A DNA stretch of 64,000 nucleotides from Candidatus Bathyarchaeia archaeon (GCA_038870595.1 JAVZJU010000002.1:1-64000), one strand, 5' to 3'; counted from the first letter of the stretch, positions 3,024 to 39,552 are shown. Notes: generated by a model from the sequence alone, not told the origin. A program made the numbers and translations.

Positions 3024-3215
3024 TCATATAAGACTAGCGCACATTCATAAACGAGAGTTTAAACGTAGGTTACAAAACTCAGAGCGGAGGAAGGAATTTG
3101 AAGGCAAATCTCCATGCAAAGCAACTTCCCTCATATCATTGAATGCCCGAATTTTCTGTTAGCGATGACTAAAAGAACGCTGGTTGGCGGTTGAGGCTAT
3201 TTTAAAGGGTCTTTG

Positions 3216-4427: not shown

Positions 4428-4464
4428 GGCTTGTTTTAAGAAATAACTTTTTAGGCTTGACGCC

Positions 4465-4475
4465 AATATTTTAGA
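4465..4475 (+). promoter_or_regulatory. TATA-like element upstream of the mutase operon (divergent from the PLP enzyme gene)
   Basis: aatattttaga lies about 32-40 nt upstream of the ATG at 4507. Confidence 0.3.
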
Positions 4476-4506
4476 CAAAACCGCTTGTGTAGAGGTTTAG
4501 CACATC

Positions 4507-6189: not shown

Positions 6190-6199
6190 AATCTGAATT

Positions 6200-6625
6200 A
6201 TGAAAGGGGCGAAGCACATGCAAAGTGGAAGAAAAATAAGGGTTCTAATAGCCAAGCCAGGACTGGACAGCCACGACAGAGGAGCAAAAGTTGTTGCAAG
6301 AGCCCTACGCGACGCTGGAATGGAAGTAATCTACACTGGACTTAGGCAGACGCCGGAGCAAATCGTTGAAACAGCCTTGCAGGAGGACGTTGACGTCATT
6401 GGATTAAGCATTCTGTCAGGGGCACACATGGCACTTTTCCCAAGGATAATGGAACTGCTAAAAGAGAAGGGCTTAACAGACGTTCTAGTGTTTGCCGGAG
6501 GCATAATCCCAGAGGAAGACATTCCAGAACTTAAAAAAATTGGGATAAGAGAGGTTTTTGGACCCGGAACCCCAACTGAAACAATTATTAAGTATGTATT
6601 AGAGAATGCTTCGAAAAGAAGATAG
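6200..6625 (+). CDS. Methylmalonyl-CoA mutase, B12-binding small subunit
   Basis: DSHDRG (DxHxxG cobalamin-binding motif), GLSILSGAH, and a Rossmann-like B12-binding domain of about 140 aa. Confidence 0.85.
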
Positions 6626-6644
6626 GAAAAGCCGGTAAAAACCA

Positions 6645-7592
6645 TTGCAGAAAATTGAGGAAATAGCTAAAGGCGTGCTCGCCGGGGACAAAAGAAGCAT
6701 AGCAAGAGCCATAACTATGGCTGAGAACAGCCCGGAAGAATCCCAAAGCCTAATCGCAGCAGTTTATCCCCACACTGGAAAAGCCCACATAATAGGCTTG
6801 ACTGGTCCAGGAGGCTCTGGAAAGAGCACCCTAATAGAAAAAATGGTCCGCGAATATAGACGGAAAGGCAAGACTGTTGGCGTTATAGCCGTCGACCCAA
6901 CAAGCCCCTTTACTGGCGGAGCCTTCCTAGGCGACAGAATCCGCATGCAAGAGTTGAGCACAGACGATGGCGTTTTTATTCGCAGCATGGCGACAAGAAA
7001 CAATCCTGGAGGAATAGCCAAAGCCACAAAAGATGCCGTAAAAATACTGGACGCTTCTGGAAGAGACGTGATAATTGTTGAAACTGTTGGCGCTGGACAA
7101 TCGGAAGTGGAGATAATCAAGGTGGCGCAAACAATAATTGTTATTCATGCTCCTGGGCTTGGCGACGAGATTCAAGCCATAAAGGCTGGGATAATGGAAA
7201 TTGCCGACATATTCGTTGTCAATAAGGCTGACCGCGAAAACGCCGACAAAGCTGTCATGGATATTCAAGCCATGCTACAATTGGATAGTAAGGAGAAGGC
7301 TTGGACGCCGCCAGTAGTAAAGACAGTAGCCCTCACAGGAGAAGGCGTGCCACAACTCATTGAGAAGATAGAGGAGCATTGGCAGTACCTCCAGAAAGGG
7401 ATATTGCACAAAAGAAGCTTGGAGAAGGCTGAGGCGGAGCTTGTTGAAGCCATAAAAGATAAAGTAACAAGCTCAATAATTGAGAAGCTAAAGAGGGAAA
7501 AACGCTTCGAGGAAATTTTAAGGCGGATTGTTGACCGCGAAATAGACCCAGCTTCGGCTGCTGAAAAACTCCTAAACCAAATGTTTGAGTAG
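6645..7592 (+). CDS. meaB: MeaB/ArgK-type methylmalonyl-CoA mutase-associated GTPase
   Basis: P-loop GLTGPGGSGKST, a DPTSPFTGGAFLGDRIRM segment and a NKAD G4 motif. The gene sits immediately downstream of the mutase genes. Confidence 0.85.
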   Translation: MQKIEEIAKGVLAGDKRSIARAITMAENSPEESQSLIAAVYPHTGKAHIIGLTGPGGSGKSTLIEKMVREYRRKGKTVGVIAVDPTSPFTGGAFLGDRIRMQELSTDDGVFIRSMATRNNPGGIAKATKDAVKILDASGRDVIIVETVGAGQSEVEIIKVAQTIIVIHAPGLGDEIQAIKAGIMEIADIFVVNKADRENADKAVMDIQAMLQLDSKEKAWTPPVVKTVALTGEGVPQLIEKIEEHWQYLQKGILHKRSLEKAEAELVEAIKDKVTSSIIEKLKREKRFEEILRRIVDREIDPASAAEKLLNQMFE

Positions 7593-7607
7593 AAGGCTGA
7601 AAAACCA

Positions 7608-8138
7608 ATGCCAAAACTTGAAAAAGGTCTTGTACAAGTCTACACCGGAGATGGAAAGGGCAAAACTTCAGCAGCCTTTGGACTGGCTTTAAGGGCTATA
7701 GGCAGAGGATTAAAAGTCTACATCGTACAATTTATCAAAGGCGGATTTGACTATGGAGAACTTTACATTGTGGATAGGCTGCCAAACCTAACGCTGAAAG
7801 CCTTTGGAAGGGGAAAATTTGTGACAACGCAGCCGCCATCAAAAGAGGATGTTAGGCTTGCAGAAGAAGCCTTCCAACTGGCAGAAAAAACCATCAAAAG
7901 TGGAGAATACGACCTAGTCATACTAGACGAGATTAATGTGGCATTAAACCTTAAACTCATAAGCTTAGAAAGGGTACTGGAACTTATTAAAAGCAAGCCA
8001 AAACATGTGGAGCTGGTTTTAACTGGACGTTATGCACCAAAAGAAATAATTGATGTTGCAGACCTCGTCACGGAAATGCGGGAAGTTAAACATCCCTTCA
8101 AGAGGGGATGTCAAGCGAGGGAAGGAATAGAATTTTGA
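7608..8138 (+). CDS. ATP:cob(I)alamin adenosyltransferase (CobA/CobO/BtuR family)
   Basis: GDGKGKTSAAFGLALRAIGRG P-loop, VQFIKGG, DLVILDEINVAL. Confidence 0.8.
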   Translation: MPKLEKGLVQVYTGDGKGKTSAAFGLALRAIGRGLKVYIVQFIKGGFDYGELYIVDRLPNLTLKAFGRGKFVTTQPPSKEDVRLAEEAFQLAEKTIKSGEYDLVILDEINVALNLKLISLERVLELIKSKPKHVELVLTGRYAPKEIIDVADLVTEMREVKHPFKRGCQAREGIEF

Positions 8139-10457: not shown

Positions 10458-11498
10458 CTAAGCGAGTTTTTCTCCACAGTTTGGACAGAACTTAGCCCCG
10501 GCTTGAACCTCGCTTCCACACTTTGGACACTTAACGGTTGATTGCAGCGGGTTTCCACAGTTGGAGCAGAACTTGGCTCCAGCAGGATTTGCTGTTCCAC
10601 ATTTAGGGCAGTTAACTCCCCCAGCCGCCACTTGCAGTGGCGCGCCACAATTGCTACAGAATTTGGCTGTCTGCGGATTCTGGAAATTACATTTTGGACA
10701 TAGTACCATGGGCACCGCCGGTGCTGGTGCCGGTGCTGGCTGAAGCACTTGTGGAAGGATCACTGCCCCGGCCCCTACCGCCGCTCCCGGGCTTTTGGAT
10801 AGGCTTTCAGCCGATTTTTGGACCGTCTCCATTCTTAGAACTTCTGTGGCTGCAACACCAGTTTTCACGTAGAACAGCCTATCCCTCCATTCCGGTGTTG
10901 TGTCGATTCCTTCAAATTTGACGTCTATCAGCTCAAGACCTATTCTTGAGAGGGCGTCGAAAAGCGCGTTTTTAGCCACTAGACTTGTTTCGTCCAGCTT
11001 GCCATAAACCTCTGCAAGCGAGTATTGGCTTAAAGTGTCAATAAGCCTCTCGTTGAAGTATCCCCTCAAAAAGTCTTGAAGCTTGTCGGTTGTGAAGGCT
11101 CCTTGTCCGCCAACCACCTCGTTGACAAAGAGGTTCGGCTCTTCAACCCTAAACCAGAAACTGCCAAAGAACTTTATTGGGGCAAGCTCCTTTGTCTGGC
11201 TTTGGGCGCCAAACCTTCCTTGAAACTGTTTAAGCGAAATGAAGATTACGGTGCATCTGAAGGGAACTTTGTCAAAACCGGCAATTTTAGACAGAATCTT
11301 AGTGAGAAGTGGAAGATTTGCTGTCGTCAAAACGTGGCGTCCAGCCCTAAAAACGTCGTAGGCTTTTCCATCTCTAAAGAAGACTGCAGCCTCATACTCG
11401 TGGACTATTAGGTTGTCGCCCCAAGCTATCTCTTCATTAGGATATCTCCAAACGATATCTTCCTCCCTCGCACCGGTCCACTCTATAACTTTAGGCAT
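10458..11498 (-). CDS. SPFH/Band-7 family protein of the YdjI type with three C-terminal zinc-ribbon repeats
   Basis: The N-terminus KVIEW...EDIVWRYPNEEI...LIV...FFRDGK follows the pattern of B. subtilis YdjI-like proteins. A PAPAPAP linker precedes three CPKCxxxxxxxAKFCxNCG repeats. Confidence 0.7.
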   Translation of the reverse strand: MPKVIEWTGAREEDIVWRYPNEEIAWGDNLIVHEYEAAVFFRDGKAYDVFRAGRHVLTTANLPLLTKILSKIAGFDKVPFRCTVIFISLKQFQGRFGAQSQTKELAPIKFFGSFWFRVEEPNLFVNEVVGGQGAFTTDKLQDFLRGYFNERLIDTLSQYSLAEVYGKLDETSLVAKNALFDALSRIGLELIDVKFEGIDTTPEWRDRLFYVKTGVAATEVLRMETVQKSAESLSKSPGAAVGAGAVILPQVLQPAPAPAPAVPMVLCPKCNFQNPQTAKFCSNCGAPLQVAAGGVNCPKCGTANPAGAKFCSNCGNPLQSTVKCPKCGSEVQAGAKFCPNCGEKLA

Positions 11499-11515: not shown

Positions 11516-12055
11516 CTAACCCTGCAAACCCCTTAAGATTTCGGTCCTCTGGTCAACCAGCCTGTCCAGCTCCTCAACCTTTGATGTTAAACCGTCCATG
11601 GCTTGCCTCCACTCTTCCCCGCCAACATCCATCTTAACTATTTTTTCAACATCCAACCTTATGGACTCAGCCTTCTCAATAAGGTTTACATCATACTGAA
11701 GAACCTGGTCAAGCTTATCCTCCCGCACCTTAACGGCGTCAAACATTCCAGCATACCCGGCAACAGCCCTATCTATTCGTTGGGTCACCCTGTCAAGGCG
11801 GGATAACAGCGCCTCATACCTGTACGTGTCCTCTCCAGAAAGCTTCTGGGCAACCGACGGATTTGCGAAGCTTCTCCTGAAAATTGTTTTCGCGTCCCTA
11901 AGCCTATTTACAACCTCCATCCTGACGAGGCGGTCGCTTTCCCTCCGCAGCTCTTTCTCCTTGTATCCCCTATACCCCGGGATATAGCCCATGATTCTCT
12001 CTAGGAGGCTTCTTTCCCCGCGAACCTTTTCCAAATATTCTTTCCCGCTCATCAC
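11516..12055 (-). CDS. Coiled-coil protein of unknown function, co-transcribed with the SPFH gene
   Basis: Charged heptad-rich sequence; 4-nt overlap with the upstream membrane-protein gene. Confidence 0.45.
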   Translation of the reverse strand: MMSGKEYLEKVRGERSLLERIMGYIPGYRGYKEKELRRESDRLVRMEVVNRLRDAKTIFRRSFANPSVAQKLSGEDTYRYEALLSRLDRVTQRIDRAVAGYAGMFDAVKVREDKLDQVLQYDVNLIEKAESIRLDVEKIVKMDVGGEEWRQAMDGLTSKVEELDRLVDQRTEILRGLQG

Positions 12056-12399
12056 TTACTCCTCTTATATGCGGCTATACCTATGACAGCCATTATAATT
12101 AAAAGTATCCCCAAGATTAGAAGCGGAGGCACGACCGCGTAGGTTGCTGAAACAACGCCAACGCACGTCATGATAATTCCCCAGACAAGATAAAAGATCG
12201 GGTCTTTACGGCTGAAAAACGAATAAAATAGCGTATAAACTCCTAAGGGACCAAAAATCCATGCTAGAAGGTTGAGATAATCGAAGGTAATTATGTTAAC
12301 ACTGTAAATAACCGCGGCAAAACCTAAAGAGGCAACAAGAACTGCAAGGGCGCCTGCGCCATAGCCGAATGAGGACACCTTCTTTTCAGATTTCAACAT
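12052..12399 (-). CDS. Small integral membrane protein (3 TM)
   Basis: Hydrophobic segments; head of the apparent operon with the SPFH gene. Confidence 0.45.
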   Translation of the reverse strand: MLKSEKKVSSFGYGAGALAVLVASLGFAAVIYSVNIITFDYLNLLAWIFGPLGVYTLFYSFFSRKDPIFYLVWGIIMTCVGVVSATYAVVPPLLILGILLIIMAVIGIAAYKRSK

Positions 12400-12500: not shown

Positions 12501-13205
12501 CTACTTTAGGATTAGCGGATATATCTCTTTAGCCACATATTCTAGGTATTTTTCCTTGTCTGTTAAGTTAAAAATGGTTACTGAGGCGTCTCTGGTTATG
12601 CCGACCACATAGCCGTACTCTCTTGATCTTGCCACCATGTACCATAGGTCGCCGTGCTTGCAATAATCCTCAAAAAGCGAAGTGTTCACCAAGTCCGGTC
12701 CATAAAGCGAAAGCTTGTTCACGTTGGGAATATCCACATTGTCGAAAAAAGTGATTTTTGTGTCTTCTGGATTTTTCAGGTGAAACTCGCGGAGGGTTTC
12801 AGGCGGTATGCGGGCTTCCACCACTCCGCCGACACGGTCGAAGAGGATTTCACTTATTTTGTTGGCTATGAAATTGGCTAGGCGTTTCTTCTCAACAACT
12901 GTTAGGAATGTGGCGTCCTCCAGTTTGGAGAAGCTGAAGAGGGCTTCAACCGTGCGGGGAAGGGGTGCGACCTTACCTCTGTGGAAAACGTTAATTATGT
13001 AGTCGTGGGAGTAGACACCCCTAAGCATGTTCTCATCTGGTTTTGGAAGAAGCCCCACAACCTCTGTTACAAGTGTAAACTTGTAGTCGCCCTCCTCATA
13101 GGATTCTTCAACACGGTAGCCTTCAAGCCTAGAAGCAACATCGTCCAAGGGAAGCGGTTCTGAAAGTCGAAAGACCTTTCCGGCAACAACCATTAATATC
13201 GCCAA
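12501..13205 (-). CDS. Hypothetical protein, divergent from the SMC-like operon
   Basis: Long ORF with no recognised motif. Confidence 0.4.
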   Translation of the reverse strand: MAILMVVAGKVFRLSEPLPLDDVASRLEGYRVEESYEEGDYKFTLVTEVVGLLPKPDENMLRGVYSHDYIINVFHRGKVAPLPRTVEALFSFSKLEDATFLTVVEKKRLANFIANKISEILFDRVGGVVEARIPPETLREFHLKNPEDTKITFFDNVDIPNVNKLSLYGPDLVNTSLFEDYCKHGDLWYMVARSREYGYVVGITRDASVTIFNLTDKEKYLEYVAKEIYPLILK

Positions 13206-13402
13206 ACACGTATAATGGCGCGTTGAAGACTAAAGCCTTACGCTTGAGCATTTTAATCGTAGCAATAGTAACTTTAATCCGTCTAAGAATTTGTTAAAAT
13301 ATAGGTTCGCCTTAGTTGCAAGTTGCCTAATTGTTTTAATAAGAGTTTTTATCCTCTATTTTATACTGCATAAGGGCAAGGCGTTAGAGGAAAAGAAAAC
13401 AG

Positions 13403-15325
13403 ATGCTAGTCAGCGAGGTGATCCTTGAAAACTTCATGAGCTATGAGTATGCTAGGGTGCCCTTTAAACCCGGAGTGAACGTGGTTTGTGGTCCCAATGG
13501 TGCTGGGAAGTCCTCGCTTTTGTTGGCTATTTCTGTGGCTCTTGGGCAGTCTTACACTGAGCGTTCCAGGAAGCTCAGCGACTTGATCCGTTGGGGTAAG
13601 GATCAAGCCCGTGTTACGCTTATACTTGATAATTCTAAGAGGGGCGGGAAACGCCCAGTTCCAAAGTTTAACAAGGACCAGATTTTTTTGACGAGGGTTT
13701 TGAGGCGGGATGGCAAGTACTGGTTTGAGTTGGAGAATAGGGCTGCTTCAAAGCAGGACGTGGAGAGGCTTTTGGCTAGGCTGGGCGTTGACCCGGACAA
13801 CATGCTTATTATTATGCATCAGAACATGGTGGAACAGTTTACAGTGCTTTCCCCCCAAGATAAGCTGAAAATGGTCGAGGCGGCTGTTGGGCTTGAGGCT
13901 TACCGCGAAAACGTTTTGGAAGCCCAGAAAAAGCTCACTCGCATATTAAGCCAAGAAGAGTCCATAAGCAAGCTTTTGGAGTCGGCGGAGCAGACCCTCA
14001 ACTATTGGAGAGAGCAATACGAAAGGTTTCAAGAGAAGAAGCAGTTGATGGCTAAGAGGCACTTCTTGGAGCGAGAACTTGCCTGGGCTGAGGTAAACCG
14101 AAGAGAAGACATGGTTAAAGATTTAGAGGCAAAACTTGAGGAAGAATTATCCCTGTTAAGGCAGATTGAAGGAGAAGCCAAAATCGCCCATGAACAGCTT
14201 CAAACACAGCAGAGCCAGCTTGAAAGGCTTAAGGGCGAATGGAAGAGAAGCCTCAACGAAACCATAGCTCTCGAACGGGAAAAAGCTGGAAGCCAAGCCA
14301 CAGTCTCGCTTTGTGAACAGCTACTGGCAGAGGCAGCCTTCATAGAAAACGAGGCTCAAAGCGGCAAACAGCATTTGAAGCTTTTAAAAACTGAAAGCTT
14401 AAAGGAGCTTATAGAAAGCTCGCGGTTGAAGGTTTCAAAGCTTGATGAGGAGCTGGGCAGAAAACTGTCGGAGACGCGGATTCTTGAGGAGCAGATGGAG
14501 AAGGTTGGAAGCCAGATTCTTGACGCTCGGGTTAGGCTTGCACTTTTAAATTATAGGATGGAAAATTCGAAGGCAAACATTGAGGGTTTGGACAAAGCGC
14601 TTAAAGATGCAAAAGCCCAGCTGGATGTGGCTGTTAAGAGGGCTGAGGAAACTGGACCAAGAATCGCCGTAGTTAAGAGTGTTGGCGAAATCTTAGATGA
14701 AATCCGTGTCATTGATGGGCACTTGGCGGCTTTGGCTGGAGTTTCAGAAGATGTGGAACGCATGTACGAGTCTTACTCACAGCTTTACTTGGAGCTTAAG
14801 GAGAAAGCGCGGCTAGTGGCTGAAAACCGTGAAAAAGCTTTAGAAGAGGTTAAGGCTCGGATGCAAGCTTGGCGAACAGTAATCCAAAACCTTCTAGACC
14901 GTGTAAATTTGGAGTATCAGAAGATTTTGGTGAGTTCTCAGGCTGTTGGCGAGGTTAGGCTTGTGAATGAGCATGACATTGAGGCGGCTGGACTTGAAAT
15001 TCTTGTGGGGTTTAAGGGTGGAAAACCAGTGCCGCTTAATGCTTACACGCAGAGCGGAGGCGAAAGAACAACAGCCACCATGAGCTTCTTGTTGGCTTTG
15101 CAGCAGCATGTGCGCTCGCCCTTCCGCGCAGTGGACGAGTACGATGTGCACATGGACCCGAAGAACCGAGAAATAATAGCTCAAATGCTGATTTCAATGG
15201 TTAAGAATGCGAACGCTCAATATGTGGTGATTACTCCAAGCCAAGTGACTTTCGCGAAGGATAATGTTAACATTATTACTGTTCAGAATGTTGAAGGAAA
15301 GTCGATAATCAAAGAGGTTGCCTAA
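13403..15325 (+). CDS. SMC/Rad50-like ABC ATPase, half-length and hinge-less
   Basis: Walker A GPNGAGKSSLLLA, Q-loop IMHQNMVEQF, about 330 aa of predicted coiled coil, ABC signature QSGGERTTATMSFLLAL, Walker B RAVDEYDVHMD. No hinge or Zn-hook motif. Confidence 0.75.
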   Translation: MLVSEVILENFMSYEYARVPFKPGVNVVCGPNGAGKSSLLLAISVALGQSYTERSRKLSDLIRWGKDQARVTLILDNSKRGGKRPVPKFNKDQIFLTRVLRRDGKYWFELENRAASKQDVERLLARLGVDPDNMLIIMHQNMVEQFTVLSPQDKLKMVEAAVGLEAYRENVLEAQKKLTRILSQEESISKLLESAEQTLNYWREQYERFQEKKQLMAKRHFLERELAWAEVNRREDMVKDLEAKLEEELSLLRQIEGEAKIAHEQLQTQQSQLERLKGEWKRSLNETIALEREKAGSQATVSLCEQLLAEAAFIENEAQSGKQHLKLLKTESLKELIESSRLKVSKLDEELGRKLSETRILEEQMEKVGSQILDARVRLALLNYRMENSKANIEGLDKALKDAKAQLDVAVKRAEETGPRIAVVKSVGEILDEIRVIDGHLAALAGVSEDVERMYESYSQLYLELKEKARLVAENREKALEEVKARMQAWRTVIQNLLDRVNLEYQKILVSSQAVGEVRLVNEHDIEAAGLEILVGFKGGKPVPLNAYTQSGGERTTATMSFLLALQQHVRSPFRAVDEYDVHMDPKNREIIAQMLISMVKNANAQYVVITPSQVTFAKDNVNIITVQNVEGKSIIKEVA

Positions 15326-16155
15326 TGCAGTCAAAGCGGGAACGCGTCAAAATTGGGCGGGAGAGGCTTCAGCGGGTTATTGAGATGTGCCGAGCTGTTG
15401 AGGAGCGCTCCCTAGACCCCTTTCTGGTGGATGTGGACGAGATAATTAGGGTTGTTAGGGAGTTTTTCCCAGAGTGGGAGCAGCCTGAAGACCTATGCCT
15501 AGACGCAGAGGCAATAAACCGCCTCGCATCGGTTGTTAGGCTTCAAAGCGAATGGGTTAGACACCGCTCAACATCCCTTTACACAGACCCCTTTCTCCTA
15601 GAGGAGAAGATAAAACGAATGGAGAAAGAAGCCATTGTAGATGCTTTTGTTGGCTCTTGGCACCCAATAGTGGAGTTTGAACAGATTTCGCTCCACAGCC
15701 TAAAAGAAGCGCTGCGCTATTGGGAAAGTCTCCCGCCACTAAAAGATAGGTGGAAAGAGTTCCCACCACCAGAAGAGGCTGGCGGAGCCGCCACCCGAGA
15801 GGAGCTTATAAGGCTTAGGATTTTGCAGGATAAAGCCTTCACAGAGGAATTGGAAAACTTTTGGAATGAGTTGAAAAGGCTGGTTGGGGAGAAGGGCGAG
15901 AATGGCAGAATCCGATACTGGGATTTTGTTGGTGCTGAAACCTATGAGGAGACAACCCGCAGAGCTTTCATGACAAGTTTTCTTGTAACTTATGGTTATG
16001 CAACCCTTGAGGTTCACCCATTGGAGGAAGAAATCTTCGTTAAGCCTTTTGAGAGGCAACAGAGGCGCATTGCCAAAAAACAGCTGGTTTCGATACCCAT
16101 AGCCATAACTGTTGAGGAGTGGGAAAAGTGGAAGAGGGGAAACCAAAATGAGTAG
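15325..16155 (+). CDS. scpA: ScpA-like kleisin
   Basis: N-terminal SLDPFLVDVDEII...ASVVRLQSEW resembles archaeal ScpA (IDPWxIDIxE...AS.L.R.KSE). C-terminal FMTSFLVTYGYATLEVHPLEEEIFVK resembles the ScpA C-terminal winged helix. Start overlaps the SMC-like stop. Confidence 0.55.
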   Translation: MQSKRERVKIGRERLQRVIEMCRAVEERSLDPFLVDVDEIIRVVREFFPEWEQPEDLCLDAEAINRLASVVRLQSEWVRHRSTSLYTDPFLLEEKIKRMEKEAIVDAFVGSWHPIVEFEQISLHSLKEALRYWESLPPLKDRWKEFPPPEEAGGAATREELIRLRILQDKAFTEELENFWNELKRLVGEKGENGRIRYWDFVGAETYEETTRRAFMTSFLVTYGYATLEVHPLEEEIFVKPFERQQRRIAKKQLVSIPIAITVEEWEKWKRGNQNE

Positions 16156-16705
16156 GAGGAAAGCTGTCTACGCCAGCAAAATGAAACGCGCCGTCCACAT
16201 GCTTTTCTACCGAAGACATAAAAAGCCCGGAGTGAAAGGCTGGGAACTCCGAAAAGCCTTGGGCTCAGACTACCCAAAAGTCCTAAACATTTTGGATGAG
16301 TACTTGAAACCTTTGGACTTGCAGGTTAAAATGGTTTTTGAAGAGGAGAAGCCAGCCGCTGAAAAGCCAACGCTGGAAGAATTGGACAAGGCGAGGTTTT
16401 ACATAACCCTAAGGGGTGATTTAACGCCTAAAGAGGCTAAGATGGTTGGTTGGCGCATAGACGACTTGGCTGGACTAGCCATAACAATAGCCTACATAAT
16501 CTCGAAAAAGGGAAAAGCACCCCGCAAAGAGGTGGAAGAACTTTTACGCGAGAAGCTGCCGGGCTGGAAGGTGGGCTTAAACATAGACCGCTACATACGT
16601 TATGGCTATTTAACCCAAGATGAAAACGAACAGCTGTACCTGGACTGGAGAACAAGAGCGGAAGTAGACCAAAAAGCACTGATAGACTTAATTTTATCCA
16701 AGTAA
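16148..16705 (+). CDS. scpB: ScpB-like winged-helix protein (tentative)
   Basis: About 185 aa with two winged-helix-like segments. Its position after the kleisin is the main argument. The ORF track starts at 16112; the ATG at 16148 is more likely. Confidence 0.35.
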   Translation: MSRRKAVYASKMKRAVHMLFYRRHKKPGVKGWELRKALGSDYPKVLNILDEYLKPLDLQVKMVFEEEKPAAEKPTLEELDKARFYITLRGDLTPKEAKMVGWRIDDLAGLAITIAYIISKKGKAPRKEVEELLREKLPGWKVGLNIDRYIRYGYLTQDENEQLYLDWRTRAEVDQKALIDLILSK

Positions 16706-16849: not shown

Positions 16850-17386
16850 TCAGAAGAGCCAACCACTGCTCTTCCGCCATTTCTTCTTAGGTTTGGTTTT
16901 TGGTTTAGGCATATTATTTATTTCTCGATTAATTTGTTCTATTGTTAGTTCTTTAGCTAGAGCATTGACATATTGACGCTTAGTTGGAGGCGATCTTGTT
17001 TCACCGAACAAGCCCTCAGAAACTCTTCCTTTAACCCTTATCCTGTGCCTTTGTGCAAGATATTTGAGCTCGCTCAAGTTCAATTTTTGCAAAAGTTTCT
17101 TGGCTCTTTTTTCTGGTGTCTCGGGTAAACCAAGCTTTTTCCTAACTTCTTTTAATGAAAGAGTTCTCATCGACTTGTTGCATGTAGGACAAAGTAGGAT
17201 GGCGTTCCTTAAGGTCAATTTTCCTCCTTTCGCGTGGGCTCTGTTGTGACCTATTTCAAAGTTGAAAGGGTCGACTTTTTTCCCACAAATTTGACATATG
17301 CCCCTATCTCTTTCGTAAACCATTTTCTTCAGAATTTTGCTAGGGGTTGGTCTTCTTTCTTCCTCCCAGAACAACACCAATCCCAA
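16850..17386 (-). CDS. HNH endonuclease with Lys-rich C-terminal tail
   Basis: CQICGKK...HNRAHAKGG...LLCPTCN (CxxC...HN...H...CxxCN). The tail is KPKTKPKKKWRK. Likely start at the internal Met MVYERDRG. Confidence 0.65.
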   Translation of the reverse strand: MGLVLFWEEERRPTPSKILKKMVYERDRGICQICGKKVDPFNFEIGHNRAHAKGGKLTLRNAILLCPTCNKSMRTLSLKEVRKKLGLPETPEKRAKKLLQKLNLSELKYLAQRHRIRVKGRVSEGLFGETRSPPTKRQYVNALAKELTIEQINREINNMPKPKTKPKKKWRKSSGWLF

Positions 17387-18208: not shown

Positions 18209-18543
18209 TCGCTTCCTCCTTCGGACTCCTCTGCTTCCTCCATAGGCTCTACTAACTTAAGAATTTCTGAATCGCCGGGCTCTCTTATAGTTAACGCTGA
18301 AACAAGGAAGGGTTTTCCACAAACAGCAGCCAAATCCGTCGAAGAACCCCTATAAACAATTAATGGAACATTGGAAAGCTTGCAGTAATACTCCAAGTCG
18401 CTGCGAATCTTAGCTGGACAATTAGAAGCCACAATAATCATCTTCGCCTTTCCAGTTTTAGCGCTTTGAATCGCGAAATTAGAGCCAAAAGAAACCTTGC
18501 CGGTTTTCACAGCTGTTGAAATAGCCTTGTCAATGTCTATCAT
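18205..18543 (-). CDS. rpl30e: Ribosomal protein L30e
   Basis: 112 aa with VKTGKVSFGSN...AKMIIVASNCP...YYCKLSNVPLIVYRGSS; between rpoA and nusA as in archaea. Confidence 0.85.
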   Translation of the reverse strand: MIDIDKAISTAVKTGKVSFGSNFAIQSAKTGKAKMIIVASNCPAKIRSDLEYYCKLSNVPLIVYRGSSTDLAAVCGKPFLVSALTIREPGDSEILKLVEPMEEAEESEGGSE

Positions 18544-21500
18544 TTGCTCTCTCTCCTAAGATCAGAAGTGGACATAAACAACTCCACAAGCCCGGTGCCG
18601 ACAGGTATGGACTGCCCAACAATAACGTTTTCAGTTACGCCTTCCAGCGGGTCGCTTTCCCCTCTTATGGCAGCCTCAACAATGTTTGGAACAGTAATCT
18701 CGAAGGCAGCCCTCGCCAATACACTTGCCTTTTTGCCGCTGACACCGTGCCTGCCGATTTGCTGCACCTCGCCCGTCGCAGTCATCATATCAGCCACGAG
18801 CATAACGTGGCGGATGTCAACGTCCAATCCTTGCTCCTCTAAAACGCTCTTAGCCTCCTGGATTAAGACGTTTCTGGCAGCCTCGATGCCCAAGGTTTTG
18901 GCTATTTCATGAACGTTATTGGTCGTCGTCCTAGTGGTGTCAACTCCGTAAACTTCTAAAACTTTGGGAAGGTTTGAGCCGTCGGTGCGTATAACCCATT
19001 CGCCATGCTCCTCTGTCACAAGGACACGTTTTATGCCCGGTACACCCTTAATGTAAAATGATGAGACCTTGTCGAGAAGCCTTTTTAGGGCTTCTGGCTT
19101 TTTAGGCTTAACGTGGATGCGGTTTCCAGCCATCTTCACCGTGCAGTTGGCAATCTTCACCTTCTCCTTAAGCTCCTGTATTGTGACGCCCCTATCCTCC
19201 ATCATAGCCTTATTCAATTCAACGATAATTTCTCCGCGCACAGGGTCTTGGTATATGGCCTGGGCAATGTTTTCGACAGTGGTGTGAAGTATGTTTCTGG
19301 CTATTTTTACAGCCGTTTCTCTACTTTTACGGTGCTTCTCATCTAGGTAAATTACCATTATAGGTGTTGATGGAATCCTCCTCGCGTCAACAATTTCTAT
19401 GAGTCGAGGCAAACCTAAGGTAACGTTTTGCTCTCTAACACCAGCATAATGGAACGTTCTAAGGGTCATCTGCGTGCCCGGCTCACCTATGGACTGGGCG
19501 GAAACTATTCCCACGGCTTCACCCGGCTCCATTAAAGCACGTTTGTAGTGCTCAACGGTTAGCTCTATGGCTTTGTCAATGCCTTCCTTGCTGAGTTTCG
19601 CCTCTGTTAAGCTCTGCTTTAGCTCGCTTATCAGCAAGGGTGTGAGCTGGTCTTCAACAGCTTTAAGCTTTTCCTTAATGTATTCTGGAGACGCTGGCTT
19701 GCCCTTCTCCATGCCAATTCTTATTTGTTCAACGAGGCGGCTGACGTTCACAGCCTTTCCATGGTCGCTTTTAGCCGGGTCAACGCCGTCTTCGCCATAC
19801 TTGAACTGGATTATGTCGCCGGTCGAGCTTCTAACAGTGCCGTCATATTCTAGGCGTAGATGTTCCAAAGCGTTAATTAGGCGTCTCTGCATGTAACCGC
19901 TCTGTTGTGTTCGGACAGCTGTGTCCACAAGCCCTTCACGTCCACCCATGGCGTGGAAGAAGAATTCTATGGCATCTAAACCCTTCTGGTATGAGGAGTA
20001 AACGAAACCCCTCGCCTTTGGAGACGGGTCGCCGAACTTGAAGTGGGGCAGTGTTCTCCCCAAATAGCCGCGCATTATACGTTTTCCACGAACAGCTTGT
20101 TGCCCAACACAAGCACTCATCTGCCCAATATTGAGGCTTGACCCTCTGGCGCCGGTCCTCGTCATGACTATGCCAGAATTGTCAAGGGTGAAGTCCTCGT
20201 CGGCGATTTTTCCAGATTCGTCTCTGGCTTTAGCCAGTTCATTCATAACATAGATTTCAAATGAGTCTTCAAGGGTTTGTCCAGGAAGCCTCGGCAGTGT
20301 GCCGTCGCGGTAACTCTTGATAAGCTCCTCAATCTTCTTTTCAACCCTCTCCATTACCTTCTTTATTTTTGTTTCAGCTTGAGGAGAAAGAACCAGCTCG
20401 TCGTAGGAGTAGGAGAAGCCCCGCATTGTTATGAAAAGCTTCAAAAGCCTCGTAATCTTGTTTATAAATCCGCGTCCAGCAGCCGTCCCATAATCCTTAA
20501 TTATTCTGTGAAGGAGGCTTTCAGACTGCTCAGCACCTACAGCCTTTCTGTCAATCACACCGCATATTAGTTGACCGTTCTTGACAACCACGTAGGCGTC
20601 GTAGGGGCACTCCTCCTTTAGGCATTTGACACATCCACGGCAGGTGTTTGCCTTCAAAACATAGTTCAAATCCTCTGGCAAGAATAGGCTGAAAATTTGT
20701 TTGCCGCTCCACATGGGCTGAGGTTCTTTGATTTGGGGTTTTGGAAGCGGACCATTATAGCCAGCAGCGATTAAGAGTCGGCTTACTTCATCTCTTGTTA
20801 GGTAGTTTGATTTTCTTGTGAAAAGATATGCAGCCGTTATAAAGTCTCTTATAGCCCCAATTATTGGACCGCCGAAGCGTGGAGAAAGAATTTGGTCTTG
20901 AACTTGCATTAGGAGAAGCGCCTCTGTTTGGGCTTCCTCGCTTTGCGGTATGTGAAGGTTCATCTCGTCCCCGTCGAAATCTGCGTTATATGGTGGACAG
21001 ACGCATAAGTGCAGGCGGAAAGTCTTGTAAGGCAAGACTCGCACGTAATGCGCCATAATAGACATTCTGTGGAGGGATGGTTGACGGTTAAAAATGGCTA
21101 TATCACCATTTCTTAGGTGGCGTTCAACAATGTAGCCCGGCTCTAAAGATTCAGCAATCTTCTCCCGGTCAGTGACAAATTCAAGTCTTATCCTTTTGCC
21201 GTCTGGACGGATAATGTAAAGGGCTCCGGGATATTTAGAGGGGCCGTTTATGACAAGTTTTCGCATTTCCTCAATGTTCCACGAGGTCACCTTTTCCGGA
21301 ACTGAAAGCCTCATGGCAACCTCCAACGGAACACCAACCTCGTTAATGTCGAGGTTTGGGTCTGGAGAAATCACTGTACGCGCTGAGAAGTCAACACGTT
21401 TCCCGGAGAGGTTGCTTCTGAACCTTCCCTCTTTGCCCTTAAGCCTCTGGGAAAGCGTTTTAAGAGCCCTTCCAGAGCGGTGCCGTGCCGGCGGAATACC

Positions 21501-22361
21501 CGAAGCCTCATTGTTAAAGTACGTTGTCACATGGTATTGGAGAAGCTCCGATAAGTCTTGAATTATAAGGGTTGGGGCACCAGCCTCCATGTTCTCTTTT
21601 AAGCGCTGGTTTATGCGAATTATGTCCACAAGCTTGTGGGTTAAGTCGTCCTCGGAACGTATGCCAGACTCCAAAGTTATTGAGGGACGCACATATACTG
21701 GTGGGACTGGTAAGACTTGGAGAACCATCCATTCCGGACGGGCTGTTTTGGAATCGAAACCCAAAAGTTCCAAATCGTCGTTCGGTATGCGTTCAAGTCT
21801 TTCTCTAACCATACTGGGCGTTAGAGGCTGAGAACCGCTTTCAGGAATTTCCTCGCTGAACTTTGTGGGCTTTTCAAAGGTTATTTTATATTGGGGAGAG
21901 TTGCAGTGAGGGCAAGTTTTAGCCCTTATTTCTTGGGTAATTCGCTTAAATATTTCATCTGGAACAGTTCCCAACAGCTGGCGGGTTCTATCGATTCTTG
22001 TCCTCAACTTTTTAACGGCGTCTTCTGGAAGTAGAATTCGCCCACAGTTTCTGCATGTAACCCTAAGAAGGTCGTATATTATTTTTGCAAATTCTATGTG
22101 GATTATTGGGACGGCTAGCTCTATATGTCCGAAATGTCCAGGACAGCGTATAGCCGTGTTGCCACACGTCTTGCATCGCTGTCTCGGTTCAAGAGTGCCA
22201 AGCCTTCCATCCATAAGCCCAGCGGTTATTGGAGCGCCATCCTCATCGTAGGTGTCCGGCGTTTGAATTTCAACCACTGAAAGTTTACGTATTTCCTGAG
22301 GTGAGAATAAGCCGAAACGGATTTCGTCAACAACTTTATGGGCGACTTCCTCAACCGCCAT
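18540..22361 (-). CDS. rpoA: DNA-directed RNA polymerase subunit A, fused A'+A'' (single 1273-aa ORF)
   Basis: The N-terminus has the Zn-binding CxxC...CPGHFGH clamp and the NADFDGDEMN active site. The C-terminus has the trigger loop GEPGTQMTLRTFHYAGV and an A''-type end IPVGTGLVELF. One uninterrupted frame. Confidence 0.85.
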   Translation of the reverse strand: MAVEEVAHKVVDEIRFGLFSPQEIRKLSVVEIQTPDTYDEDGAPITAGLMDGRLGTLEPRQRCKTCGNTAIRCPGHFGHIELAVPIIHIEFAKIIYDLLRVTCRNCGRILLPEDAVKKLRTRIDRTRQLLGTVPDEIFKRITQEIRAKTCPHCNSPQYKITFEKPTKFSEEIPESGSQPLTPSMVRERLERIPNDDLELLGFDSKTARPEWMVLQVLPVPPVYVRPSITLESGIRSEDDLTHKLVDIIRINQRLKENMEAGAPTLIIQDLSELLQYHVTTYFNNEASGIPPARHRSGRALKTLSQRLKGKEGRFRSNLSGKRVDFSARTVISPDPNLDINEVGVPLEVAMRLSVPEKVTSWNIEEMRKLVINGPSKYPGALYIIRPDGKRIRLEFVTDREKIAESLEPGYIVERHLRNGDIAIFNRQPSLHRMSIMAHYVRVLPYKTFRLHLCVCPPYNADFDGDEMNLHIPQSEEAQTEALLLMQVQDQILSPRFGGPIIGAIRDFITAAYLFTRKSNYLTRDEVSRLLIAAGYNGPLPKPQIKEPQPMWSGKQIFSLFLPEDLNYVLKANTCRGCVKCLKEECPYDAYVVVKNGQLICGVIDRKAVGAEQSESLLHRIIKDYGTAAGRGFINKITRLLKLFITMRGFSYSYDELVLSPQAETKIKKVMERVEKKIEELIKSYRDGTLPRLPGQTLEDSFEIYVMNELAKARDESGKIADEDFTLDNSGIVMTRTGARGSSLNIGQMSACVGQQAVRGKRIMRGYLGRTLPHFKFGDPSPKARGFVYSSYQKGLDAIEFFFHAMGGREGLVDTAVRTQQSGYMQRRLINALEHLRLEYDGTVRSSTGDIIQFKYGEDGVDPAKSDHGKAVNVSRLVEQIRIGMEKGKPASPEYIKEKLKAVEDQLTPLLISELKQSLTEAKLSKEGIDKAIELTVEHYKRALMEPGEAVGIVSAQSIGEPGTQMTLRTFHYAGVREQNVTLGLPRLIEIVDARRIPSTPIMVIYLDEKHRKSRETAVKIARNILHTTVENIAQAIYQDPVRGEIIVELNKAMMEDRGVTIQELKEKVKIANCTVKMAGNRIHVKPKKPEALKRLLDKVSSFYIKGVPGIKRVLVTEEHGEWVIRTDGSNLPKVLEVYGVDTTRTTTNNVHEIAKTLGIEAARNVLIQEAKSVLEEQGLDVDIRHVMLVADMMTATGEVQQIGRHGVSGKKASVLARAAFEITVPNIVEAAIRGESDPLEGVTENVIVGQSIPVGTGLVELFMSTSDLRRESK

Positions 22362-22362: not shown

Positions 22363-25300
22363 TTAGGCCCTCTCCTTAAGCTTTAATTTTGGCGCTACAC
22401 AAAGGCTCATCAGTTCTTGTAGAAGAAGCTTAAAGGCATAGGAGACTATTACAGGCGAGATTTTAGCCTTGTCTTCGCATATTCTGCAAACATATTTCCT
22501 CTGTTTTAGGTCGTAGTAGGCTATGTAGCCGCAGTTCTCACAAATGTAAAGAGTATACTTATCCGACTCCTCCAAAAGCCTGTCACGTAGGAGCATGGCA
22601 GCTCCATGTCCGATAAGGCAGTCCCTCTCCATTTCGCCGAAGCGCAGTCCACCTCCGCGGGCTCTTCCTTCCGTCGGCTGCCTCGTTAACATTTGCACTT
22701 GTCCTCTGGCCCTTGCGTGGATTTTGTCTGCAACCATGTGGTGGAGCTTCTGATAGTAGACTATGCCCACGAAAACATCTGCCACAAACTTTTCACCCGT
22801 CACGCCGTTGTAGAAGACCTCTTCCCCACTGTGGCTGAAACCAAGCTTTATTAGGGCTTTTCTCAAGTCCTCTGCCTTCTCGTTTGAGAAGGGTGTTCCA
22901 TCAACCGGCTTGCCCCTCATGGCTGCAACTTTGCCAGCTATAGACTCTATAAACTGTCCAATAGTCATTCTCGACGGGATGGCGTGGGGATTAATTATAA
23001 TGTCTGGAACTGTACCGTCCTCCGTGAAGGGCATATCCTCTTGTGGCACAATAAGCCCTATAACGCCTTTCTGTCCGTGGCGGGATGCAAACTTGTCGCC
23101 AAGCTCTGGGATTCTCTGGTCTCTAACCCTAACCTTCACGAGTTTACTTCCCTCGCCAGACTCTGTTATGAAGACGGCGTCTACGATTCCTGTTTCTGAT
23201 GGGCGCATGTCCACGGAGGTGTCCCGCATTGAAGGCCCCTTAACCTCAAACTCCTTATATTCTTCTAGGAATCTTGGCGGGCTTGTTCTTCCTATCAGAA
23301 CGTCTCCACCGGTAACTTGGGCTTCTAGGCTTATTATGCCGTCTGGCTCCAAAAGCCTATAATATTGTTCGCCTCTGAAACCCCTTGTTCCCGGTTCTGG
23401 TATGACAAATTTGTCTTTAAGTCCGCCCATATATTGGCGGCATTCAGCTTCATATATGCGGTAGAATGTGGATCGCCCCAAGCCCCTTTCAATTGAGGCT
23501 TTGTTGAAGATTAGGGCGTCCTCCATGTTGTAGCCTTCATAGGATAGAACCGCCACTATACAGTTCTGCCCTGATGGGCGAAGCTTATAGCCCATAACTT
23601 CCATTAGAGTTGTTTCAACCAGCGGCGTCTGTGGATAATGCAGTATATGCGACCTTGAATCAACACGTAATGGGAAGTTTGTGGCGAAGATTCCGAGCGC
23701 CTGCTTTGCCATAGCTGCTTGATAAGAGTTGCGGGGTGACTGATTGTGCTCCGCATAGGGTATTGTTGAGGCGCAAATTCCGAGAATTGTGTGGGTTGAA
23801 ATTTCCAGGTGGGTGTGTTCTGGGGTTATTTCTTCAGCGCTTATGGCGACGTAGGCGTTTTCCTCCTCCTCAGCATCCAAATATTCAATTATGCCATCTT
23901 TAACAAGGTCTTCAAAGGACAACCCGCCATGGTTAATCTTTTCTATATGCTCTGGCTGAAGCCTCGGGGTGCCATTTTCAACTATTATTAGTGGTCTTCT
24001 AACCCTTCCCTCGTCGCAGTTAACGTATATTTCCTCTCTTTCACCATACTCCTTAGGGAAGTAAGCGATGTTAACTTCTGTTGAGATTTCTCCCATGCGC
24101 CGGCGTTGCCTAAACTCTTGAACCACCTTTTCTGGAGTGGCACAATAGCCAACAATTGTTCCATCCACGAAGACTTTTGCACCGTAACGCTTGAGCGTTT
24201 CATTTGCCTCGTAGACCGGCGTGACGCCCATGCTAAACAGTATTTGCTTAATCTTTTCGGGGTTTACTCCGACGGATATGGAGGCTGATAAGGCAAGGTT
24301 CTTAACCAAGCCGCAGTTTGAGCCTTCCGGCGTCTCATTCGGGCATAGGCGCCCCCAATGGGTTGAGTGCAAGTCTCTAGCTTCAAAGTTTGGCTGGCTT
24401 CTGCTGAGCGGCGACTGAAGCCTTCTCAAATGGCTTAGGGTGGAAAGGTAATTTGTCCTATCGAGAAGCTGGGTTACACCAACGCGTCCTCTTCCCCAGT
24501 TTCCCGTGGCAAGTGCGTGCTGAAGCCTTTCGGTTATTATGCCTGGGCGCACGGCAGCCGAAACAGTAATTATTGGTCCTTTGACACCTATCCTTTCAAG
24601 CTGGTATTTTATATCTCTTATAAGGTTTCGGAAGGCTACGCGGAACAAGTCTGCCAGCAGTGGTCCAGCAAGCCTCAAACGCTTGTTTTTGAAGTGGTCT
24701 TTGTCGTCTGGTTTCCGCCTTCCAAGCTTTAGCTCGATGACTCTGCACGCCATCTCGCCCAAGAATATGGCTTTTTCACGGCGGCTCTGGTTTGTCCTTC
24801 CAAGGTGAGGTAAGAAGTTCTTATCTATGGCTGCTTCAGCCTTCTGAATACGGTATTCCTCAACTTGCCCGTGGGCTACGCGATTTCCAATAAATAATAT
24901 TGCGTCTCTAACGGTGTCGACGCCCAAAGCCTTCTCGAAGGATGGCTCCAGCTCACTTTGGATTTCCTCGTCAACCGAGACGGCTTCGGCAATCTCTTTG
25001 TCAGACTCAAGTCCCAAGGCTCGCATAACAATGACGAAGGGGACTTCTGTTGGCACTCCTGGCATCGTGACGTATAGGGCGCCATCAGACTTCATCTTCA
25101 GCTCTATTCTTGCTCTAAAGCCAACGGTTGTGGAGAAGAGTTTGGCTTGGTAGACAGGAGTTGCGCCCTTTTCGTCTATGTCAACGATTATGCGGTTTGG
25201 AGCTAAATCCTCCATAGCCACTATGACACGTTCAGAACCATTAACAATGAAGTAGCCGCCTGGGTCGTCTGGGTCTTCGCCAACGGCTATTAGTTCTTCG

Positions 25301-39473: not shown

Positions 39474-39552
39474 CTTTGAAAATTAAAGAGAATTTTCGAG
39501 CTTCGGAATCTAGTTTATAAGACACTATTTTCAATTTTAACGTTAGAGTCTG

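Follow-up and report, generated by a model that had tools for sequence, protein, structure and literature searches.

SMC5/6 is the least understood of the eukaryotic SMC complexes, and its archaeal relatives are known from phylogenies only. In the textbook view, the hinge of an SMC protein is the domain of constitutive dimerisation and the gate for DNA.

The SMCs of Bathyarchaeota group with SMC5 and SMC6 in published trees, where they have been named "SMC5/6-related aSMC" (Yoshinaga & Inagaki 2021). Archaeal SMC5/6-related operons of the same type and gene order as the one analysed here have been reported from the TACK and Asgard groups, among them the Bathyarchaeia, with Bathyarchaeota E29_bin60 as a published example operon (van Hooff et al. 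2024/25, bioRxiv 10.1101/2024.01.07.573240). In the same study, Bathyarchaeia were scored with neighbouring Nse4-related and Nse1/3-related genes, the kleisins adjoining Nse1/3-type kites being assigned to the Nse4-related group in the published tree, and an example Bathyarchaeota genome carries an SMC5/6-related operon together with a separate condensin-like operon. Bathyarchaeia also carry a separate ScpB-like kite, and at least one of them has a separate SMC/kleisin/ScpB operon (bioRxiv 10.1101/2024.01.07.573240). Both van Hooff et al. and Yoshinaga & Inagaki (2021) treated these archaeal proteins as hinge-dimerising SMCs and built their trees without the coiled coils, and neither mentions an ATPase of about 640 aa that lacks both hinge and hook.

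The operon analysed here lies in a window of 64,000 nucleotides, the whole stretch of DNA that was studied, from a Candidatus Bathyarchaeia archaeon (GCA_038870595.1 JAVZJU010000002.1:1-64000). It agrees with the published archaeal SMC5/6-related operon in gene content, order, strand and host group as well as in its affinity to SMC5/6 and, by weak matches, to Nse4. The ATPase is nearest to SMC5/6, the kleisin carries an Nse4_C signal and matches to ScpA or ScpB are lacking; therefore, we assign the locus, with a probability of about 80%, to that operon type, as the Bathyarchaeia version of an archaeal SMC5/6-related chromosome-maintenance complex in which an SMC-type ATPase is joined by an Nse4-like kleisin and a kite of putative Nse1/3 type. 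Earlier publications cover operons of this type, their affinities to Nse4 and Nse1/3 and their occurrence in Bathyarchaeia, so that the present finding refines a known system and does not add a new one. The pairing of the ATPase with kleisin and kite genes, which an earlier, sequence-only reading of this DNA had taken for ScpAB homologs and considered notable, is the published norm for SMC5/6-related operons. The features of the locus are listed in Table 1.

Table 1. Features of the SMC-kleisin-kite operon, numbered from the first nucleotide of the window.
Feature	Position	Strand	Basis
Candidate archaeal TATA-like element, TTTATA	13360..13365	+	Consensus-level reading of sequence only
Short SMC5/6-related SMC-type ABC ATPase, 640 aa	13403..15325	+	Pfam SMC_N, PDB matches, homolog lengths
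N-terminal head half, aa 1-165 (Walker A 30-37, Q140)	13403..13897	+	Motif scan; aligns with yeast Smc5 residues 44-249
Ascending coiled-coil helix, aa 165-320	13895..14362	+	AlphaFold2 helix, pLDDT ~90
Apex turn, aa 321-330, where a hinge or zinc hook would be	14363..14392	+	AlphaFold2 loop, pLDDT 56-65
Descending coiled-coil segment, aa 331-510, interrupted twice	14393..14932	+	AlphaFold2 secondary structure
C-terminal head half, aa 511-640	14933..15322	+	Motif scan; aligns with yeast Smc5 residues 869-1053
Nse4-like kleisin, 276 aa	15325..16155	+	Sub-gathering Pfam Nse4_C matches, junction sequence
Kite-type tandem winged-helix protein, 185 aa, basic N-terminus	16148..16705	+	Homolog lengths, AlphaFold2, Foldseek
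Candidate archaeal terminator, T-rich stretch GTTTTTCTTCT directly past the kite stop codon	16716..16726	+	Read from sequence

Three same-strand ORFs with overlapping ends were confirmed at 13403-15325 (640 aa), 15325-16155 (276 aa) and 16112-16705 (197 aa from a TTG), where the sequence-only reading had placed them. The translational coupling of ATPase and kleisin that it had proposed was also seen, as the two genes meet in a TAATG junction in which the kleisin ATG and the upstream TAA have one base in common. Because most kite homologs are 184-191 aa long, the kite most likely starts at ATG 16148 (185 aa) and not at TTG 16112 (197 aa); with that start, kleisin and kite genes overlap by 8 nt (ATGAGTAG). 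The three genes form one translationally coupled operon, the G+C content of which is level with its surroundings. The TATA-like candidate is situated about 40 nt upstream of the ATPase ATG, inside a 197-bp intergenic region common to the ATPase gene and a divergent gene (12501-13205), and an HNH endonuclease gene is found on the opposite strand 145 bp downstream of the kite.

Pfam SMC_N matched the ATPase over residues 3-627 (1.3e-37), and a motif scan retrieved all head motifs: Walker A GPNGAGKS (30-37), Q-loop Q140, QSGGE (550-554), Walker B PFRAVDE (573-579) and D-loop DEYDVHMD (578-585), followed by VVITP (608-612), which places an SMC5/6-type "TP" at the position of the canonical SMC H-loop. 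In a residue-level alignment, the ATPase and yeast Smc5 have in common QSGGER, PFR.VDE,.MD and QY..ITP. AlphaFold2 modelled the coil as an antiparallel hairpin of about 345 aa with about 155 residues per strand and a 10-residue turn, at a pLDDT of about 90 that concerns the coil, the heads being poorly modelled. The ascending helix (165-320) shows a heptad-type hydrophobic periodicity of 3.5 residues and would span about 23 nm if helical throughout. On the descending side, the model has helices at 331-417, 427-443 and 451-510, separated by breaks at 418-426 and 444-450 which possibly are joint-like interruptions; the sole proline of the coil sits in the first of them (proline/glycine map), and G418, P419 and R420 were invariant among close homologs. 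A globular hinge is absent from the model, Pfam SMC_hinge did not match the ATPase, and the protein contains no CxxC zinc hook, its sole cysteines being C29 and C304. When the query was aligned with 28 short-form representatives of the family, the apex (aa 301-340) was the least conserved and most length-variable segment. The ATPase consists of a complete ABC/SMC head and a single coiled-coil arm, the tip of which is a plain turn of low conservation, which agrees with the earlier description of a protein with complete ABC head motifs, about half the normal SMC size and devoid of hinge and zinc hook.

Among solved structures, the best phmmer matches of the ATPase were yeast and human SMC5 (1.9e-33) and SMC6 (1.5e-28), ahead of prokaryotic Smc (archaeal Smc head 5xei, 2.3e-26). 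When 1.84 billion representatives were scanned, animal SMC6 and SMC5 and a functionally unnamed choanoflagellate protein came first among the full-length relatives from outside the archaea, and one family member carries the JGI label "structural maintenance of chromosomes protein 5". By similarity ranking, the nearest non-archaeal relatives of the ATPase are SMC5 and SMC6; such raw rankings are not decisive, because P0374, a long paralog within the family, had a slightly higher score with archaeal Smc than with SMC5. All of the 120 closest homologs are 639-651 aa long, representatives of 50%-identity clusters usually measure 548-685 aa, and CxxC is absent from every short-form representative. 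Judging from these sequences, the short, hinge-less form is the norm for the family in Bathyarchaeia and Nitrososphaeria, and an Asgard relative (P0454) does match SMC_hinge.

The kleisin matched Pfam Nse4_C at aa 204-270 (E 0.006). The same model was matched by all 37 aligned kleisin homologs (best 1.9e-5) and by 4 more distant kleisins, that is by 41/41 members, always in the C-terminal 70-75 residues and always with 16-25 bits, below the Pfam gathering score of 26. Nse4_C was the sole recurring Pfam match across the family, one homolog of which has a precomputed PF08743 match. SMC_ScpA was matched neither by the kleisin (E<=1) nor by its 37 homologs (E<=0.1), PADLOC and NCBIfam returned nothing for the 276-aa protein, and a profile search of the family against the PDB gave no match. 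Thus, the previous claim that the kleisin termini match ScpA could not be upheld, the recurring signal being a weak one to Nse4_C.

For the kite, AlphaFold2 predicted, with low confidence, the topology H-H-E-E followed by H-H-H-E-E, which corresponds to a tandem winged helix. The top five Foldseek matches of this model were a MAGE-G1/NSE1 complex, JetB (three chains) and Nse1 (E 1e-3 to 6e-3), and ScpB was not among its top 50. The Pfam models for ScpB, MAGE and Nse1 did not match the kite, and ScpB profiles found neither the kite (E<=1) nor any of 28 kite homologs (E<=10). Of the "ScpB-like winged-helix gene" noted earlier, the winged helix, which is of kite type, was retained and the ScpB assignment was dropped.

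These results bear on whether the locus could encode a miniaturised canonical condensin, in which a shortened Smc would work with true ScpA and ScpB orthologs in chromosome organisation and segregation. We consider this improbable. A kleisin and kite architecture is found in both systems, the archaeal Smc head is matched by the ATPase, and SMC_prok_A (TIGR02169) is its best NCBIfam match; however, the score of the latter (172.9 bits) is far under the cut-off of 729.4, as is that of TIGR02168 (148 bits, cut-off 567). Moreover, SMC5 and SMC6 rank above Smc, the sole kleisin-family signal is Nse4_C, and SMC_ScpA and ScpB are matched neither by the proteins of the window nor by the 37 kleisin and 28 kite homologs, whereas Bathyarchaeia have their separate ScpB-like kite (bioRxiv 10.1101/2024.01.07.573240).

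Homologs number thousands for each of the three proteins, and genes for the SMC (about 640 aa), kleisin and kite were contiguous in 59/62 related Bathyarchaeia loci with enough upstream flank, so that the operon is not a product of chance. Relatives of the kite were present in 386 species genomes, with 80-100% identity across the best 80 Bathyarchaeia species loci, and a more divergent operon (L082) is 42-52% identical with the same gene order. The neighbours of the operon are NusA-KH, L30e, RpoA and RpoB. Equivalents of Nse2, Nse5 and Nse6 were not found nearby. Almost all members of the class have the operon genes, and the operon is a vertically inherited housekeeping system and not a mobile defence module.

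Indeed, such a range of species, high conservation and fixed synteny are the opposite of patchy defence islands. A role of the locus in defence against phages or plasmids, as a Lamassu (LmuB-type) or Wadjet/MksBEF module in which an SMC-like sensor of foreign DNA triggers an effector, is very improbable. PADLOC models for LmuB (5.4e-23), mad3 (1.2e-31) and JetC (5.7e-8) matched the ATPase, JetB chains appeared among the top structural matches of the kite, and the HNH gene is close by; nevertheless, the ATPase matches are of the generic ABC-head kind, that to JetC being limited to residues 122-307 of the coiled coil, and the HNH gene was detected in only 2/80 related loci; in the loci L025 and L031, NusA comes directly after the kite. 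The kleisin, the kite and both neighbours were without match to LmuA, LmuC, JetA, JetB or JetD: PADLOC found nothing for the two partner genes or for the ORF upstream, and its sole matches to the downstream HNH gene were models of the HNH-nuclease type (restriction-enzyme, PtuB). Pfam revealed neither a Toprim nor a DUF3883-type effector, and no Toprim gene lies nearby. Wadjet (JetABC[D]) and Lamassu (LmuACB) do resemble the locus in having an SMC-family ATPase, and Wadjet also in its kleisin JetA and its kite JetB, a structural look-alike of the low-confidence kite model; they differ from it in those missing partners, in the missing nuclease and in its housekeeping distribution. The Lamassu alternative of the sequence-only reading found no backing at 15325-16155, which lacks any LmuA, DUF3883-type or other PADLOC match.

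A comparably small probability is given to an asymmetric SMC5/SMC6-like heterodimer, in which the short ATPase would pair with a second SMC, either a long zinc-hook paralog or a canonical SMC. Eukaryotic SMC5/6 is a heterodimer, and long proteins of 1016-1058 aa with heads 42-47% identical to the ATPase exist in other Bathyarchaeota, but the long paralog comes from other lineages, its locus (L081) has neither kleisin nor kite, an arm of 155 residues could not pair with one of about 400, and separate homodimers have been argued for in published work. Least probable is an ASRP (ClsN/Sph) or Rad50-like repair ATPase lying by chance beside two small genes: a length of about 600-650 aa resembles that of Sph, weak NCBIfam matches to ASRP (NF045487, 6.2e-19), Rad50 (3.2e-24) and arcadin-4 (1.2e-14) were obtained and Rad50 was the top Foldseek match of the low-quality full-length model, but the scores are far under the cut-offs (68 bits vs 300, <=85 vs >=700 and 53 vs 860, respectively), the ATPase has no CxxC and no Mre11 neighbour, and the synteny with kleisin and kite is strict. 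ASRPs possess a CxxC zinc hook, and their gene neighbourhood is not conserved (PMC9389158), which, with the low ASRP score, removes the basis for the earlier comparison with Sph/ClsN. ASRPs (ClsN/coalescin, Sph1/2) and Rad50 resemble the present protein as archaeal ABC ATPases that are short or SMC-like and have a coiled coil but lack a canonical hinge; they have the hook and lack kleisin and kite, whereas here the hook is missing and the partners are strictly conserved.

The SMC5/6-related assignment leaves clear differences from the described complexes. With the eukaryotic SMC5/6 core the locus shares the head motifs QSGGER, PFR.VDE.D.MD and ITP, a kleisin whose C-terminal winged helix is putatively of the Nse4_C type, and kite rather than hawk partners. 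However, eukaryotic SMC5/6 is built on a Smc5-Smc6 heterodimer, whereas the single ATPase gene found here presumably gives a homodimer; the eukaryotic ATPases are about 1,100 aa long, in contrast to the 640 aa of the hinge-less archaeal protein, and their kites are Nse1 and Nse3, compared with one kite gene without a RING domain. Smc-ScpAB likewise combines an SMC ATPase, a kleisin and a tandem winged-helix kite within a single operon, and a 2:1:2 stoichiometry is presumed for both, but its arm measures about 47-50 nm, against about 23 nm here, where there is neither a hinge nor a match to ScpA or ScpB profiles. SMCs in the strict sense (Smc, SMC1-6) carry a hinge at the tip of strands of about 300-350 residues, whereas the strands of the present ATPase have about 155 residues and are joined by the 10-residue turn.

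By analogy with the solved structures of Smc5/6, Smc-ScpAB and cohesin, two ATPase heads would engage around two ATP molecules. The kleisin would bind one ATPase at the neck through its N-terminal helices and the second ATPase at the cap through its Nse4_C-like, C-terminal winged helix. The basic kite would sit as a dimer on the middle of the kleisin, and the engaged heads would clamp DNA against the kite/kleisin module in the manner of DNA-bound Smc5/6, until ATP hydrolysis releases or resets the clamp. As there is no hinge, the contacts between the two ATPases would probably be limited to the engaged heads, the bridging kleisin, the dimeric kite and perhaps a zipping of the arms; a tip-to-tip dimerisation of the ATPase, which is compatible with the monomer model, is conceivable. 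The kleisin/head compartment would be kept and a hinge-closed arm compartment would not; therefore, an ATP-gated DNA clamp or short-range bridge for chromosome maintenance or repair is more likely, on this structural analogy, than a long-arm loop extruder.

We propose, tentatively and with slightly less than even confidence, that Bathyarchaeia and Nitrososphaeria have, as their standard SMC5/6-type complex, a hinge-less, hook-less SMC-kleisin-kite machine with arms of about 23 nm, which would act as an ATP-gated DNA clamp held together only by heads, kleisin and kite. If this is true, it would be a minimal natural SMC complex and the hinge would be dispensable for a conserved cellular SMC function, while the zinc-hook relatives of other Bathyarchaeota and the hinge-bearing ones of Asgard archaea would document apex swapping within one family near the root of eukaryotic SMC5/6. 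The widespread form in Bathyarchaeia and Nitrososphaeria is without hinge, yet keeps its kleisin and kite under strong purifying selection. If confirmed, it would offer a small three-protein natural system in which the need for a hinge and long arms could be probed (clamping vs loop extrusion), it would call for caution in surveys that count short hinge-less proteins as ordinary SMCs, and it would constrain the form of the archaeal SMC5/6 ancestor.

Three ORFs for an SMC-type ATPase, a kleisin and a winged-helix (kite) protein follow each other on the same strand, as the sequence-only reading had described them. The ATPase and kleisin genes meet in the junction TAATG, where the stop and start codons have one base in common. 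For the kite, the downstream start codon is the most likely one, giving 185 aa, because its homologs are mostly 184-191 aa long; a start there gives the gene an 8-nt overlap, ATGAGTAG, with the kleisin stop. By consensus, TTTATA about 40 nt 5' of the first ATG is a candidate promoter-type element and a T-rich run after the last stop a candidate terminator. The G+C content of the operon equals that of its surroundings, and no second SMC-like gene was found within the 64-kb window. A Bathyarchaeia host is indicated by the close homologs, which are all labelled so, and by an NCBI MAG protein with 100% identity to the ATPase.

Coordinates of the operon, of motifs in its ATPase, and of neighbouring and related features
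Feature	Location	Strand	Remark
ATPase ORF	13403-15325	+	640 aa
Kleisin ORF	15325-16155	+	276 aa
Third ORF (kite)	16112-16705	+	longest reading; likelier start ATG 16148
Walker A GPNGAGKS	aa 30-37 of ATPase
Q140	ATPase
QSGGE	aa 550-554 of ATPase
PFRAVDE	aa 573-579 of ATPase
D-loop DEYDVHMD	aa 578-585 of ATPase
VVITP	aa 608-612 of ATPase
SPFH/Band-7 protein	10458-11498	-	three or four zinc-ribbon repeats at C-terminus
Small conserved ORFs	11516-12055, 12052-12399		after SPFH gene; no family match
Divergent ORF	12501-13205	-	234 aa
HNH endonuclease gene	16850-17386	-	between kite and NusA-KH; Pfam HNH 1.3e-8, weak match to IscB HNH region
RpoA	18540-22361	-	single 1,273-aa ORF, A'/A'' unsplit
RpoB	22363-25728		1,121 aa; upstream of RpoA
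Large predicted surface proteins	36414-54506
L010 (related locus)			exception: 173-nt gap, kleisin to kite
L031 (related locus)	2307-5983		exception: kleisin and kite separated by four unrelated ORFs (131-370 aa)
L025 (related locus)	5995-6579		exception: lone kite beside NusA and RpoA; ATPase and kleisin absent within 6 kb
L081 (long paralog)	4843-8019		no adjacent kleisin or kite

The ATPase is an intact SMC-type enzyme with a short hairpin arm that lacks a dimerisation domain. Pfam SMC_N covers residues 3-627 (1.3e-37), while SMC_hinge gave no match even at E<=1; apart from C29 and C304 the sequence has no cysteine, and it contains no CxxC. In an AlphaFold2 model, run with 29 homologs, the heads were poorly modelled and the coil well: the middle of the protein (pLDDT about 90) forms a single long helix at residues 165-320, a 10-residue turn at 321-330 (pLDDT 56-65) makes up the apex, the returning helices span 331-417, 427-443 and 451-510, and no globular domain appears at the tip. 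A Foldseek search with this model returned generic SMC-superfamily matches only. In an alignment of the query and 28 short family representatives, conservation was lowest and length variation greatest at residues 301-340, column identity being 0.10-0.16 there versus 0.6-0.8 in the heads. Head motifs, Pfam, CxxC scan and model together bear out the earlier description of a complete head and about 330 aa of coiled coil with neither hinge nor hook.

Among all PDB sequences, the ATPase matched SMC5 best (yeast, 1.9e-33; human, 1.5e-27), together with SMC6 (1.5e-28), and archaeal Smc came behind them (2.3e-26). Residue-level alignment with Smc5 revealed the common motifs QSGGER, PFR.VDE,.MD and QY..ITP. 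When 1.84 billion cluster representatives were scanned with HMMER, a tight family stood out at E<1e-100, mostly of 548-685 aa, whose named short members belong to Bathyarchaeia, Nitrososphaeria and Nitrososphaerota, one of them carrying the JGI label 'structural maintenance of chromosomes protein 5'. Next in the scan came proteins of 1,000-1,140 aa with 24-30% identity to the ATPase; ten of these were looked up, and the two with functional names were insect SMC6 and SMC5, a third being an unannotated choanoflagellate protein and the remainder having no name.

The one Pfam signal of the kleisin is Nse4_C at residues 204-270 (E 0.006), which recurred in 37 of 37 aligned homologs (best 1.9e-5) and in four remoter kleisins, including a 42% identical one from the metagenomic contig L082, all with scores below the Pfam threshold of 26 bits; one homolog also has a precomputed PF08743 match. 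No ScpA, NCBIfam or PADLOC family matched the kleisin, and single-sequence and profile searches of the PDB returned nothing meaningful for it. The kite matched no sequence family and, by single-sequence or profile search, no PDB sequence, and 28 of its homologs hit no relevant Pfam family at E<=10. Its AlphaFold2 model, built from a shallow alignment with rows 87-98% identical, reached a pLDDT of 52 yet contains two helix-helix-strand-strand units; fold searches with it were weak because of that low pLDDT. The ScpA and ScpB labels of the sequence-only reading are better replaced by the tentative labels 'Nse4-like' for the kleisin and 'Nse1/3-like' for the kite.

Archaeal 'SMC5/6-related' SMCs, chiefly from TACK lineages including Bathyarchaeota, have been shown to branch with eukaryotic SMC5 and SMC6 (Yoshinaga & Inagaki, 2021). 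Van Hooff et al. (bioRxiv 10.1101/2024.01.07.573240) distinguished a condensin/cohesin-related set, made up of SMC, kleisin and ScpB-like kite, from an SMC5/6-related set of SMC, Nse4-related kleisin and Nse1/3-related kite; in their Supplementary Table 3, Nse4-related and Nse1/3-related genes sit next to each other in several Bathyarchaeia, and the example Bathyarchaeota E29_bin60 has both operons, each ordered SMC, kleisin, kite. The operon in the window therefore belongs to a described kind, most probably as a hinge-less, short-armed version of the archaeal operon related to SMC5/6. The proposal of a mini-condensin held as far as a hinge-less SMC operon is concerned, and the ScpA/ScpB identity of the partners found no profile support. 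A canonical Smc-ScpAB complex is improbable here, given that the partner profile evidence is contrary and that a separate ScpB-type set has been published for Bathyarchaeia. The short form itself appears to have gone unremarked: both papers introduce SMCs as hinge dimers and excluded coiled coils before tree building, neither mentions a short or hinge-less form in text or supplements, and full-text literature searches returned nothing on it.

Relatives of the kite are encoded in 386 genomes of a scan with one genome per GTDB species. The best 80 of these are all close relatives from Bathyarchaeia and so did not deepen the profiles; identities to the window proteins are 80-100% for the kite and 63-94% for both ATPase and kleisin. 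Upstream flank sufficed at 62 loci, of which 59 kept the contiguous gene order, with ATPases of 639-655 aa; the exceptions are L010, L031 and L025 (see table). L082 carries a copy of all three genes, arranged alike, at 42-52% identity. The operon neighbourhood is a housekeeping one, with a NusA-type KH protein, L30e, unsplit RpoA and RpoB in its flanks. A Lamassu or Wadjet defence module, the former having been the alternative offered from the sequence, is very unlikely: the ATPase gives generic head matches only, effector and partner-profile matches are absent, and the distribution is near-universal and syntenic among housekeeping genes.

The HNH gene downstream of the kite was ruled out as an effector of the system, being found in just 2 of the 80 related loci (L001 and L003). 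Since NusA-KH directly follows the kite in L025 and L031, this gene was probably inserted as a mobile or selfish element and stands apart from the system. On the other side, the divergent 234-aa ORF had no Pfam, NCBIfam, PADLOC or PDB match; at least 44 related loci have it 5' of the ATPase gene, directly adjoining in about 27, at 74-97% identity. L30e and NusA-KH lie downstream of RpoA, which also occurs unsplit (1,274 aa) in L025. Farther along the window, the predicted surface proteins (1,019, 1,008, 729, 556 and 514 aa) contain PKD repeats, PQQ-type beta-propellers, and cohesin and dockerin domains, and two large ORFs of the same cluster (683 and 652 aa) match no family.

Some Bathyarchaeota encode paralogs of 1,016-1,058 aa (P0374/P0514, P0377, P0381 and P0426) that share 42-47% identity with the ATPase in their heads and proximal coils, with about 400 extra apex residues and, at mid-length, a central C[DE][KR]CGS motif that looks like a zinc hook. 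A metagenome scan with the long paralog gave two loci only; in the one long-paralog locus recovered, L081, neither kleisin nor kite follows the gene. Pfam detects an SMC_hinge domain in P0454, an 835-aa relative from the Asgard archaeon Candidatus Freyarchaeum. A single head family thus shows three types of apex, namely a plain turn, a hook-like motif and a hinge. Membership of the ATPase itself among ASRPs (ClsN/Sph) or Rad50 is very unlikely: ASRPs form a separate family whose members carry zinc hooks and lack conserved neighbours (PMC9389158), while the ATPase lacks a hook, is strictly linked to kleisin and kite, and scored far under every NCBIfam equivalog cut-off (SMC_prok_A, 173 bits against 729; Rad50, 85 against 700; ASRP, 68 against 300; arcadin-4, 53 against 860). 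A RecN-like reading was rejected as well.

The ATPase is strictly coupled genetically to a basic winged-helix protein and to a kleisin whose C-terminus resembles Nse4_C. By analogy with solved structures of Smc5/6, Smc-ScpAB and cohesin, two heads would sandwich ATP, the kleisin would link one ATPase, at its neck, to the other, at its cap, and be bound by a dimer of the kite, and DNA would be clamped atop the engaged heads. As conservation is lacking at the apex, the ATPase dimer would be held by heads, kleisin and kites, although a tip-to-tip contact may occur, the model being that of a monomer. Such a complex would clamp or bridge DNA in an ATP-gated manner instead of extruding loops with long arms. 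The value of the SMC5/6-related operon is not that of a new system; it would lie in a minimal natural SMC complex and in the origins of SMC5/6.
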